This document shows, in pieces, positions 9,049-53,455 of a DNA stretch of 64,000 nt. The notes beneath the pieces are model-generated. The model saw only the letters and a list, made by a program, of their open reading frames with translations, made no database searches and was not told the DNA's origin. Positions within the stretch are counted from its first letter, which is position 1. Each line of letters opens with the position of its first letter. Made by a program: the position numbers and the translations under genes. This stretch comes from Eledone cirrhosa (lineage: Eukaryota): NCBI GenBank assembly GCA_964016885.1, contig OZ024743.1, positions 240,684,001 to 240,748,000 of the forward strand. The letters are read 5' to 3'.

Positions 9049-9405
9049 GTTGTTGTATGGTTGCAATTAAATGCGTCTGTAGGCGGTACGCCGTTTGAGC
9101 ACTCGATGCTGGCGCAGAGCAGAGTATGTTATTATAGATAACGAGGAATCAGTAAAGCATCAAAACACAATTTATTAACATATTACATATGTTTCATCGT
9201 CGATCAGCCTCAAGGCAGGATCTGTTACAGATCGAACCCTACTACAATCCGTTACCCGATGTACAATCAGTTACAAAAGTGACATATGCAGGTAATTATA
9301 TTTCTTTGGCTTGTTTTTCCCAACTCATTCAACCTGTCATAATAAAAATAACAAAAAAATCAAACGGAACTTTAGTGACTGTATATGTCATTGTTGTAAC
9401 TGATT
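9049..9405 (-). mobile_element. Composite of two pLTR-like HHR elements (families F and E)
   Basis: 9049-9260 is related to 37090-37150 and has GAAA-CAUAUG-UA at ~9183-9194 (-). 9288-9337 (-) is a decayed family E hammerhead. 9375-9405 (+) is an inverted family E piece that matches 15802-15833. Confidence 0.65.
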
Positions 9406-9584
9406 ATATATATATATATATATATATATATATATATATATATATATATATATATATATATATATATATATATATATATATATATATATATATATATATA
9501 TATATATATATATATATATATATGTTTATATATATATATATATATATATATATATATATGTTTATATATATACATTTATATATA

Positions 9585-9784
9585 CAGTTTGTTCGGTTTT
9601 TACGCAAATTTAATACGCGAATACGCTTTAACGCATCTTGAAAAAATATTAAATAACCACTAAGCGCGAATAACGCACTATAACGCGTGTGGTTTTTATT
9701 TTTTTTATTTATCAGAAATACTAGACCTGAATTACGCGAACTTGCTTTACGCGCCGCATCTTTGCGTAAAAAGCGAACACACTG
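9585..9784. mobile_element. 200-bp MITE, Tc1/mariner(pogo)-type ends
   Basis: 24-bp TIRs cagtttgttcggtttttacgcaaa / tttgcgtaaaaagcgaacacactg (2 mismatches). CAGT terminus, TA on both sides, no ORF. Confidence 0.85.
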
Positions 9785-9855
9785 TATATATATATATATA
9801 TATATAATAAATAAACGATATGATATATAATATGATATAATATAATATAATATAA

Positions 9856-9970
9856 TTGTTTCTACTTTAGGAACAAGGCCAGCAATTACCCAGTACATTA
9901 CTGGTACTTTATTTTATCGACCCCGTAAGGATGAAAGGCAAAGTTAACCTCGGCGGGATTTGAACTCAGA
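9856..9970 (-). mobile_element. SINE family 1, 5'-truncated
   Basis: Reverse complement of the B-box, core and tail. Confidence 0.85.
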
Positions 9971-10169
9971 TTGAATATAATATAATATAACATAATATAA
10001 TATAATATAATATATATAAATATATATATATATACATATATATATATATATATAGAGAGAGAGAGAGGGTGTGCGGGTGAGCGATATCTGCAGTCATTTC
10101 CAGCTGAGTGTCTGGCACTCACCCGCAAACATGGAGCTCTTTTATGCTGCGAGTAATGAACTATTTATA

Positions 10170-10370
10170 CGAGACACGCTAAATAGTTGCACTCCACATG
10201 TAAACACAGACTGTTGAATATTAAATAACGGGACATAAATCCAGACAAATTAGTGCTCCAACAGGCGAAACATCCATGAAGACTGTGTTACAAAAGAACC
10301 AAATTCGTTGGATAGGACATGTCACCAGCATGAGCAACAATATGATCATGTCCACATAACTTCCCTATAG
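10170..10370 (+). pseudogene. Decayed RTE (BovB-like) LINE ORF 3' fragment
   Basis: Conceptual translation ...HRLLNIK*RD.NPDKLVLQQA...VLQKNQIRWIGHVTSMSNN resembles the RTE C-terminal LRW.GHV.RM motif. Confidence 0.65.
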
Positions 10371-50137: not shown

Positions 50138-50346
50138 TTATTTAAGTACAACTAGAAACAATTATTTAAGTACAAAAACAGTCGTGAAAAATGGAAATCT
50201 ATATATATATATATATATATGTGTGTGTGTGTGTGTGTGTGTGTGTGTGTGTGTGTGTGTGTGTGTGTGTGTGTGTGTGTGTGTGTGTGTGTGTGTGTGT
50301 GTGTGTTCATATATGTATGTATGTGTATATATATATATATATATAT

Positions 50347-51314
50347 AAAGCCCAAGTCATTACACCTGATGGGATGACAGAGTTCTTTGAGATACTGGCT
50401 GGAGTGCTCCAGGGAGATACATTGGTTCCCTACCTTTTTATCATCGTAGTGGACTATTGTATGCGCCTTGCACTGGAGAAACACCAGGACTCTGGCTTTA
50501 CTGTAGCACCGGCTCAGAGCAGGAGAGTTAGGGCGAAAAAGGTATCGGATACTGAATTTGCCGACGACATAGTTTTGGTGACAAATACAGTGAAGGAGGC
50601 AGAGGATTTGATGCGGGAGGTTGAGACTGTGTCGATGAGTCTGGGGCTGAGAATGAATGAGACTAAAACAAAATATCTGGTAGAGAATGTTGAGAAGCCA
50701 GAGGGGATCACTAATGTAGGCGGGAAGCCGCTGGAATTGGTTGAGGACTTCCTGTATTTGGGAGCAAAGATTGGAATACGGAAGATGATGTGGTTGAGAG
50801 GAAGAGCAAGGCCTGGGCGGCGTGTCATAGCTTGAGATCGGTGTGGAAGTCGGACCTTCGTAGAGACCCGAAAATCCGCCTCTTCATTGCTGTAGTGGAG
50901 TCTGTACTGCTGTATGGGTCTGAGACTTGGACACTGACCAAGAAACTCACTCAGATGGTGGATGGGTGCTACACGAGAATGCTGAGGATGGCTCTGAACA
51001 TTAATCAGTATACACTGAGGATGAAAAACTCAGAGCTGTATGGGAGCATCCCAAAAGTCAGCTCAAAAGTGACACAGAGGAGACTTAGGTTAGCTGGACA
51101 TGCTCACCGACATCCAGAGTTGACATTGCACTCAGTACTTCTTTGGGAGCCCCTACATGGACACACTAGAAGAGGAAGACCAAGGTTAACGTATGTTGAT
51201 GCGCTAAGGACAGACACTGGTCTGTTGGAGATACAGGACATGGCAGCGATAATGAGGGACAGAGACCGCTGGAGAGAACTCGTCCATGGATCTCGGGAAT
51301 TTTACCCGCCTTAG
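50347..51314 (+). mobile_element. RTE-clade LINE, 5'-truncated RT
   Basis: GVLQGDTLVPYLF, EFADDI, FLYLG, then one frameshift near 50770 and the C-terminal LLYGSETW...LAGHAHRH; begins in (TA)n. Confidence 0.92.
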
Positions 51315-51319
51315 ATATA

Positions 51320-52368
51320 TAATACGTATAGTTAGCACACCAAACGTATAATTGGGATTATACTAAGGTATATCCTAATGTTTGTTGAGTGAGACGGAAG
51401 CCGGTCGGAGTATTGCTTAAAGCTTTCTCTGTTAATGTATTAAATATTATACTCTTGATTTGGCCAGAGATGAATATTTCCAGATACTTTTTAGGTATGA
51501 CTTTCTGTATTTATTCTTTGTATGAAATATTGATTGTTTTTCCGGTATCTTGTCTCTGTTTTTAGCCTAAGAAAATACCTATATGCGTGTATAAATAATA
51601 CATGCATATATTTATTTTTTTTATATCCAATTGAGTTCTTCACGTATGTTTAAAATTATTGAAAGAATTATTTGACCTGCGTGCATATTATTTCATCTTT
51701 TTATGTTTTGCGATGACCTCCCCTTCCCGCTTGGTGACGGTGTGAGATTTCTCTTTGTGAGACTGCTGGAATTTCAAATTTGGCGGTCACTCTAACACTG
51801 ACGGGTACCATCACTGAATATTAATATCGGTAGGGTTTTTTTTATATCGATATTGTCGGGCATCCACTAATGATTTATAAGTGCCCACCTACATATATTC
51901 CTATGGACTATGTGTAGGCTTCTACATAACCTCGACATTATTTTTCCAATTTGTGGATTGGCAGTATCGGTAGAGGGTTGGACGCCATGCTTTGCAGCAA
52001 AGAATTACGGCCCTTTATGGTCTGAGTTCAAATCCCGCCGAGGTTAACTTTGCCTTTCATCCTTACGGGGTCGATAAAATAAAGTACCAGTGGTACACTG
52101 GAATAATTGCTGGCCTTGTGCCAAAAGTAGAAACAATTATTTTTCCAATTTGTAGAAAACTTATAATGAAACGATCGTTTGGAAAGAGAGATGCATTTAA
52201 TTACGTCTCATATAAAATAATACAACTGGCTATCCGCAAAATACGTAAAGTTAGCACCCCAAACATATAATTGGGATTATACTAAGGTATATCCTAATGT
52301 TTGTTGAGTGAGACGGAAGCCGGTCGGAGTATTAATTAAAGCTTTCTCTATTAATGTATTAAATATAT
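51320..52368 (+). mobile_element. Non-coding element bounded by ~130-bp direct repeats (family G), interrupted by a SINE
   Basis: 51320-51447 is nearly identical to 52239-52366; ends in (TA)n. SINE at 51955-52135 has an 18-bp TSD attatttttccaatttgt. Confidence 0.75.
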
Positions 52369-52487
52369 ATATATATATATATATTAAGTAAAAGCTAAGT
52401 GGAAATATCCAAGAGTAAGAACACTCAATCCATAGGACGAGCACAATAAACCATAGGCGGCCATCTTTGGTTTTTATTTTTCTCATG

Positions 52488-52538
52488 ACAGGCTGAATGA
52501 ATTGGGGGCCAAGAACCTAACGAAACTTGAGTACCTGT
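52488..52538 (+). ncRNA. Type I hammerhead variant with 8-nt core CUGAAUGA (family E)
   Basis: ACAGG-CUGAAUGA-auuggg...ccuaac-GAAA-CUUGAG-UA-CCUGU. The inverted family tail lies at 52385-52450. Confidence 0.75.
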
Positions 52539-53455
52539 TTCTGTCACTGTTGTAATTATATATATATATATATATATATATATTTTTTTTTTAAAAGTGC
52601 TTCCAATCTACTGTAAAACTCATTCTTTGATGTACTCATTGAATATTGTTTAACTCTTTAATATATATATATATATATATATATATATATATATATATAT
52701 ATATATATATATATATATATATATATATATATATTAGGGTAAACATTGATGCAATTCAATTCAAGCACTCAACGTACTTTTTCCACATAGGAGTGACGGA
52801 GTAAATATCGAATAAGGAAAAGCGAAGTAGTTTCAGATGTTCAAGTCCTTTAATAATATATATATATATATATACAGTATATATATATATACATATGTAT
52901 GTAATGCTAATTTACTTAACAATAACAACTATTTCAAGATAAAAATCTAAATTCATTTGTTGAGATGATGGAACAACAAAATGTAAAAATAAAACGAAAA
53001 AATTGTAAACATTGAACTAGATATCCTTTCCTGAAACATTATTCGGAACAAATTAATTGCAGGTTGCTAAATTCAGTGTCACATGATATTGTGTTATATG
53101 ATATAATATGATATGATATAATATAATAATATATTATATTATATTATATTATAATATATTATATATATATTGATTCAACGGCAAAAGCTCAGCCGTTAGG
53201 CAGTAACTCTTTACAATACCCACACTTTACGTTACTCAATATCAAGTATTTACCTCTCAATGGTCTTACTTGTCTAAACTGGTAACTCCCAATCTCTCTC
53301 TCTCTCTCTCTCTCTCTCTCTCTCTCTCTCTCTCTATATATATATATATATATATATATATATATATATATATATATATATATAAAGAAAAAGAGATGAA
53401 ATCGAAAATGCAACTGAAGTCTTATTTTTTTTAAAAATATATATATTTATTGGTT

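Follow-up and report, generated by a model that had tools for sequence, protein, structure and literature searches.

The reverse transcriptases (RTs) of Penelope-like elements (PLEs) are the sister group of telomerase, and the question addressed here is how they choose the RNA that they copy and the two internal sites at which they start; one in vitro study has mapped PLE start sites, not a binding motif (PMC11167929). The question is raised by a stretch of 64,000 nt from Eledone cirrhosa (OZ024743.1 of assembly GCA_964016885.1, positions 240,684,001-240,748,000 of the forward strand), hereafter referred to as the window. In it, an initial annotation had noticed the word GAGTGCT and variants thereof 30-60 nt before the (TA)n junctions of otherwise unrelated repeat families, and had read it as a conserved cis signal. 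We found that the shared signal is a bulged hairpin, RCTC-stem-loop-stem-TN-GAGY, of which the word forms the 3' arm, rather than a linear motif. The hairpin is a real, structured and clade-wide signal of which the annotation had seen one arm. Twin hairpins of this kind in the leader of Hydra-type PLE RNA likely dock the RT on a start site approximately 6-9 nt upstream of each.

All listed words were recovered at their positions and on their strands. The sample for the chance tests consisted of the window plus 1.2 Mb of the same 3.0-Gb genome (1.26 Mb altogether), in which 1576 non-repetitive flanks facing (TA)n runs were grouped into 1009 clusters. A motif-free search of this sample confirmed the positional enrichment, with TGAGTA, TTGAGT and TCGAGT as the top three 6-mers at -25 to -80, all on the sense strand. 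Part of the TGAGTA signal stems from hammerhead stem III in the short ends of the 15284/52420 family (families are named here by the positions of their words in the window). CTAAT and AATTG were likewise enriched in this zone of the junction flanks. The exact word GAGTGCT turned out to be modestly enriched at best, with approximately ten clusters at 40-70 nt versus approximately one per 10-nt bin elsewhere, and three of its eight occurrences in the window (1316 and, on the opposite strand, 50402 and 57366; minus, plus and plus, respectively) have neither a (TA)n run within 200 nt nor a matching hairpin. The junction distance of 30-60 nt was too narrow, as it amounts to 37-80 nt in the window and approximately 35-100 nt across families.

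Between the outer arms of the hairpin lies a second, inner stem whose letters vary by family. The outer U-A pair and the bulge U are invariant, the loops range from 2 to more than 60 nt with a fixed bulge, and RCT often follows directly 3' of the hairpin. Using the above sequence as descriptor, we compared GAGY words near the junction (30-100 nt before the TA run) with words more than 200 nt away. The hairpin was formed by 88 of the 790 near words versus 36 of the 9338 far ones and, in 200 kb of the genome fetched after the rule had been formed, by 10/105 near versus 5/1324 far words. Similarly, it occurred in 78 of 1566 TA flanks, whereas for nine other microsatellites taken together the count was 5 in 886 flanks. 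The 98 near-junction matches, approximately 3-4 of which are expected by chance, fell into 31 groups whose flanks were no more similar to each other than shuffled ones (median score 15 versus 14). One family of three copies picked up by the descriptor proved to be a pairing of the hammerhead region at the short end and was rejected as a member. An early structure count per cluster had been weak (13 versus 5-11 in control zones), because the zones were anchored at the junction and each cluster was represented by a single member.

In order to assess covariation, we turned to 77 loci from metagenomes that encode related proteins and form 63 groups at 80% identity; 86 distinct anchors were picked in them by their outer sequence only and compared with 5000 shuffles, kinship being ignored. 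Of the 86 anchors, 85 had a Watson-Crick first inner pair (54 C-G, 31 T-A; null mean 45.7), and the second and third inner pairs were of this type in 59 and 52 (null means 26.4 and 21.5, respectively); for none of the three pairs did any shuffle score as high. The antisense strand of these loci yielded 6 anchors, versus 86 on the sense strand. An alignment of 23 hairpins contained 97% paired cells and two-sided changes in six of eight pairs, figures that are biased as the rows were chosen for structure.

The copies of the hairpin families end 3' at fixed positions, are truncated 5' to varying extents and carry inverted 5' arms, which are traits of PLEs (PMC8557442). Four families of the window, GAGTACT (34539), 41678, 42160 and 15284/52420, connect to open reading frames (ORFs) of one type. 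The 40 best-scoring copies of the GAGTACT family are contiguous with the end of the ORF, and several copies of the 41678 family with the ORF; the other two families are linked to the ORF without a TA run between. The locus L271 is an intact tandem with one 717-aa ORF per unit, carrying DKT and CxCX5C; an intact copy of this ORF lies at L271:2488-4641. DKG is replaced by DKT at residue 117 of protein P0048, as also in the DNA of L245, and the CxCX5C linker precedes the C-terminal endonuclease in P0048 (residue 572) and P0004, C572, C574 and C580 being invariant in the protein alignment. At the position of the N-terminal RWK motif, P0048 has RWR (residue 37). The Hydra-type families insert into (TA)n. 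Their putative hammerhead ribozymes have a canonical core in the 41678 and 42160 families and a variant one in the GAGTACT and 15284 families; the variant cores, at 15330-15375 (minus strand), 52490-52535 (plus strand) and L271:2210-2270, differ by an additional base in their CUGA-GA part or by a long stem II. The RT fragments of six ORF-bearing hairpin families are 29-54% identical to each other, and their similarity to the Neptune-type RT is not significant (BLASTP E 0.3-9). Based on the protein motifs and the pairwise RT identity, we assign the ORF-linked hairpin families to one Hydra-type PLE group. Thus, the description of the families as otherwise unrelated holds for the DNA, with between-family flank scores at the level of shuffled sequence, but not for the proteins, whose identities make the families distant relatives.

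Two families, 52764 and 52306, consist of tandem units of 1.3-1.4 and 1.0 kb, respectively, without a PLE coding match. The longest ATG frame of the 52764 unit comprises 75-84 aa, yet both hairpins are present. Some candidate links were rejected: a link of the 9098 family to a Hydra ORF in L216, where the element concerned ends at query 897-973 in other copies; a link of a hairpin family to a Nematis-type ORF in L119; and Helitron/Helentron ends, suggested at first by CTAG and by hairpins in the vicinity of 5261 and 8832, where the sequence is the pseudo-long terminal repeat (pLTR) of a PLE.

Each family has two discrete ends, one before each of two hairpins, and the order in the leader is hammerhead, hairpin 1, hairpin 2 and start codon. 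Copies end approximately 6-9 nt 5' of either hairpin, so that the hairpin likely marks the start for the copying enzyme. The short ends lie mostly at -5 to -14 from hairpin 1 (mode -7 to -9) and the long ends at a family-specific 32-92 nt 3' of it; a TA stands at -6 to -8 before the hairpin, and 5 of 423 mapped ends fall inside one. Among 50 two-ended families found without reference to the motif, RCTY follows shortly after the short end in 21 (background 18%), and both arms occur in ten, nine of which pair (swap null 2.5). An early, coarser grouping had over-merged families (16 groups; 8 paired versus a null of 2.0) and was superseded by the finer ones. The inverted arms of the 42160 family stop at the short end in 12 of 14 cases, judged by eye.

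In L271, hairpin 2 (GCTC-CTAC..GTAG-TA-GAGC) begins six nt after the long end and lies 87 nt before the ATG. In contigs from public sequencing runs, TA ends hang loose at L271:2317 and at 2397, which is five and three nt, respectively, 5' of the hairpins if TA-matching bases are counted as element, and the depth falls more than 200-fold past the second end. Six ORF-bearing families, three of them with a short or mismatched inner stem, and the non-coding 52764 family have arms of hairpin 2 at 6-9 nt past the long end. Within 11 leader regions, hairpin 2 was not seen in two, L036 and a decayed copy in the window. It is present only in tandem or full-length copies and absent from ordinary insertions. 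The initial annotation had tied the signal to the 3' junction; a fixed spacing does exist, namely to the copy end on the 5' side (approximately 6-9 nt), whereas the 3' junction is set by the second hairpin. Therefore, the distance from motif to junction equals the spacing of the twins, which would account for the so-called tail of PLEs.

The hairpins extend beyond this genome, into metagenome sequences and into published consensi from coral and sea cucumber. The strict descriptor matched 25 of 54 metagenome leaders (shuffled mean 0.31, antisense 0) and a relaxed rule 40 of 54 (shuffled 4.0, antisense 5); at the level of families, the hairpin was found in 33 of 45. Two hairpins were called in 15 metagenome loci, and after removal of L292 and L332 due to overlapping calls, 13 of the 54 leaders had two clean hairpins, located 55-83 nt apart downstream of a hammerhead, at approximately -95 to -135 and -40 to -70 from the ORF start. 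A TA starts at -6 in 44 of 82 metagenome anchors, and in L302, L303, L307 and L318 a TA junction lies 6-7 nt before a hairpin. In six Hydra consensi of PMC8557442, inspected by eye, the hairpin is clear at the 3' end of Hydra-2_Amil and Hydra-2_Ajap, occurs twice at the 5' end of Hydra-1_Ajap and is present as a variant in Hydra-1_Crog. Five 9-letter words gave seven matches in the available supplement of that paper, in which line breaks can hide matches: four Hydra hairpins and three matches inside Naiad or Chlamys.

The copying process may be pictured as follows. Acting as a dimer, the RT protein would bind the two hairpins of a tandem transcript generated by read-through. After nicking of (TA)n by the endonuclease, the freed ends would pair with the TA-like stretch of 2-6 nt before each hairpin, from where copying would proceed 5'-ward. 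Priming before hairpin 2 would give a long end carrying hairpin 1, which is what the initial annotation saw. Short ends, most of them on the inverted arm, would come from priming before hairpin 1, and the tail of PLEs would correspond to the distance between the two hairpins. The initial reading as a conserved cis signal is supported; of the roles suggested for it, RT recruitment or end definition fits best and an internal promoter is not favoured.

Several observations weigh against this account. Single hairpins fold weakly (z-scores -2.7 to +0.2 in seven folded windows), and the minimum-energy fold contains the hairpin in four of the seven, with an alternative pairing winning in the L271 leader. 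The 5' arm is lacking in 29 of the 50 two-ended families; many of these 29 are chance pairs or elements of another type. In several families, the inner stem of hairpin 2 comprises no more than 1-2 pairs, and some copies of hairpin 2 contain mismatches. For the 9098 family, no connection to an ORF was found. In the metagenome set, the relaxed rule still leaves 14 of 54 leaders, some of them on short contigs, without a hairpin; as to the Hydra consensi, the inner stem is poor in Hydra-1_Amil and no hairpin is seen in Hydra-1_Obim. Finally, G-U and A-C counts (12 versus 6) do not separate RNA from single-stranded DNA.

This last point leaves room for an explanation at the level of DNA, which we consider unlikely. 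The GIY-YIG endonuclease would recognise the hairpins in element DNA or complementary DNA (cDNA) and cut at the TA 6-8 nt away, and both ends would reflect trimming of a longer intermediate. The position of the TA suits a nicking site, the tail of D. virilis Penelope is required for endonuclease recognition of plasmid DNA (PMC11167929), and the tail has been ascribed to endonuclease-mediated resolution (PMC8557442). However, in the related PAc the ends coincide with RT start sites on RNA in vitro (PMC11167929), ordinary insertions have no hairpin 2, and loops of such variable length around a fixed bulge suit a single-stranded fold. Somewhat less probable still is that the hairpins control expression of the ORF, by way of translation, RNA stability or ribozyme folding, and that the copy ends coincide only incidentally with the unpaired, AU-rich stretch 5' of them. 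The rather constant distances from the ORF start given above and the location 3' of the hammerhead would be explained by this, but the non-coding tandem families retain the hairpins, both of them in the 52764 unit, which argues against translation control, and the ends keep their narrow spacing from each of the two hairpins. A linear DNA motif shared by descent, be it an internal promoter element or a splice signal, is very improbable. In its favour, sequence conservation extends to the outer arms and to the RCT 3' of them, an internal promoter and an intron can occur in PLE leaders (PMC8557442) and the Nematis-type word at 3146 lies within GTGAGT. It is largely refuted, however, by the covariation at an inner pair with varying letters, by the exchange of A-T and G-C at the basal pair (10 versus 13 of the 23 aligned rows, which were chosen for structure) and by the variable spacer length.

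Docking of the RT by twin hairpins is best compared with what has been reported for Poseidon_Ac, where two internal RT start sites bound the tail, the RNA 3' of them is required and a dimer is predicted (PMC11167929). The elements described here are alike in having two probable internal start sites with an optional tail, an upstream hammerhead and an AT-rich target, and differ in the defined bulged hairpin just 3' of each end, in a non-coding leader, with tails of approximately 55-170 nt. With the Hydra clade as described in PMC8557442 they share DKT, the CxCX5C linker, the single ORF, (TA)n targets and inverted 5'-truncated arms; unlike it, some of their hammerhead cores are variant, and their unit, at 3531 bp, exceeds the tendency of the clade to stay below 3 kb, because of a long 3' untranslated region. 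The words hairpin and stem-loop do not occur in the accessible text of that paper. The 3' stem-loop of the eel element UnaL2, one of the stringent long interspersed nuclear elements, is likewise a small bulged RNA hairpin near the copy end that is common to non-autonomous partners, and it is required for retrotransposition (PMC1636434). In UnaL2, however, the loop is single and lies inside the copied tail, whereas here it is paired, each hairpin lying outside the cDNA whose start it marks. The non-coding 52764 and 52306 tandems resemble the non-LTR retrozymes, non-autonomous derivatives of PLEs (10.64898/2026.07.22.740005), and would use PLE proteins in trans; they differ in the size of their units (1.0-1.4 kb), and the available part of that preprint names no recognition signal.

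The idea of a stem-loop recognised by an RT is known, and its paired form, with a testable account of the PLE tail, is new. No published description of the hairpin was found in the literature searched, which consisted mostly of open-access papers, with Repbase reports outside it. A scan of the window with Rfam covariance models (E<=1) gave 233 matches, and the best 150 of these, none of which names the motif, were microsatellite-driven matches of microRNA type, a fragment of 5.8S rRNA and one sub-threshold match to a viral untranslated region (34377-34523). With a short, covarying motif that keeps a constant spacing to either end, the choice of RNA and start sites by PLE RTs becomes amenable to a direct mutational test, and the true limits of Hydra-type elements and of their non-coding passengers can be recognised by the hairpin. 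The broader proposition, to which we give an even chance, is that the twin hairpins are an ancient RNA ruler of the Hydra clade, both copies being bound by a dimeric, telomerase-related RT that primes on both target strands 6-9 nt upstream of each. If so, this ruler would explain the tail, the inverted arm and the trans-mobilisation of non-coding units, and a tag of approximately 25 nt would be portable, setting the start of reverse transcription on any RNA.

Within the window, eight of the ten sites of the initial annotation carry the hairpin, seven in full (9098, 15284, 41678, 42160, 52764, 34539 and 52420) and one in decayed form (52306); all are hairpin 1. That of the 9098 family (ACTC-TGCT..AGCA-TC-GAGT, 9101-9125, minus strand) lies 56 nt before the (TA)n junction at 9049, and the inverted copies of this family stop approximately 5-15 nt before the hairpin. 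In the 15284/52420 family, which is linked to a Hydra-type ORF, it is found at 15287-15306 (ACTC-GTCC..GGAC-T-GAGT, with a 1-nt bulge and 3' of a variant hammerhead core) and at 52423-52442 (GCTC-GTCC..GGAT-T-GAGT), both on the minus strand. Two further Hydra-type families contribute ACTC-CAGT..ACTG-TT-GAGT at 41657-41681 (plus strand, long end at approximately 41738) and ACTC-TGG..CTG-TT-GAGT at 42163-42187 (minus strand, long end at approximately 42101). A type I hammerhead core precedes the latter at 42256-42298 (minus strand), and the inverted, 5'-truncated arm of the same element, at 42345-42506 on the plus strand with an approximate left boundary, ends at the short end, approximately 9 nt before the expected start of the hairpin. 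ACTC-CGT..ACG-TT-GAGT at 52767-52802 (minus strand) belongs to the tandem family of 1.3-1.4 kb without PLE coding match. The GAGTACT family, which elsewhere in the genome includes a young 3531-bp Hydra-type element with a 717-aa ORF, is represented by 34519-34542 (plus strand) and by three copies additional to the initial list, at 8921-8944 (plus), 16192-16215 (minus) and 60508-60531 (minus). The decayed hairpin, at 52256-52309 on the plus strand, retains seven inner pairs with one outer pair broken and belongs to the 990-bp non-coding tandem family, a second copy of which, near 51387, continues beyond the long end. A decayed Hydra-type PLE copy with frameshifts and stops occupies 58163-60051 (plus strand; ORF start at approximately 58473, boundaries taken from flanking TA runs), and no clear hairpin is left in its leader.

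A scan of the window with the model R1, which is descriptive only as R1 was built partly from window sites, also matched 13017-13036 (minus strand, E 0.007), where the outer arms and a TT bulge are present with one inner pair and without an adjoining TA run, possibly an old hairpin, as well as an AT-rich, chance-like stretch at 49526. At L245:3690-3850 (minus strand), a Hydra-type copy of the 42160 family carries a 5' inverted short-end arm of another family, of the 15284/52420 type, suggesting that priming of the second strand can occur on the RNA of another family. Likewise, the 9098 element is preceded at 9245-9404 (minus strand) by a fold-back piece that stems from another family and has a variant hammerhead core.

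The initial annotation had also counted two Nematis-type sites, GAGTGTG at 34927-34933 and 3146-3152 (both in a pLTR on the minus strand). These are not the same signal, because they have no 5' arm and lie upstream of the short end of that element. GTGAGT is the consensus of a 5' splice site; this context is present in the 3146 copy, not in the 34927 copy, and the word at 3146 may be the donor of a leader intron. In the Neptune-type tail, a partial look-alike (ACTC-GTGT-AGG-ACAC, 2840-2858, plus strand) has its ACTC at +8/+9 from the short end, a spacing equal to that of the hairpin, as well as a 4-bp inner stem and a deviant 3' outer arm; a second hairpin after the long end was not found in the Neptune-type tandem L180. 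A near full-length Neptune-type PLE with two overlapping ORFs lies at 53385-58010 (minus strand). The family is young, with 150 scored copies at 98-100% over the C-terminal 181 aa, and has two 3' ends approximately 65 nt apart (14 short and 12 long in L171-L200); in its tandems, the tail runs into the leader approximately 30 nt before the ATG.

As to other contents of the window, a fragment resembling 5.8S rRNA lies at 21200-21359 (minus strand; 44.6 bits versus a gathering score of 42), and a 32-bp minisatellite with approximately 73 copies and 97% matches extends over 10358-12686. An abundant repeat of 180-190 bp, resembling a short interspersed nuclear element, is found at 7312-7494 and at approximately 15 other places, also inside PLE copies (e.g. 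51953-52142).

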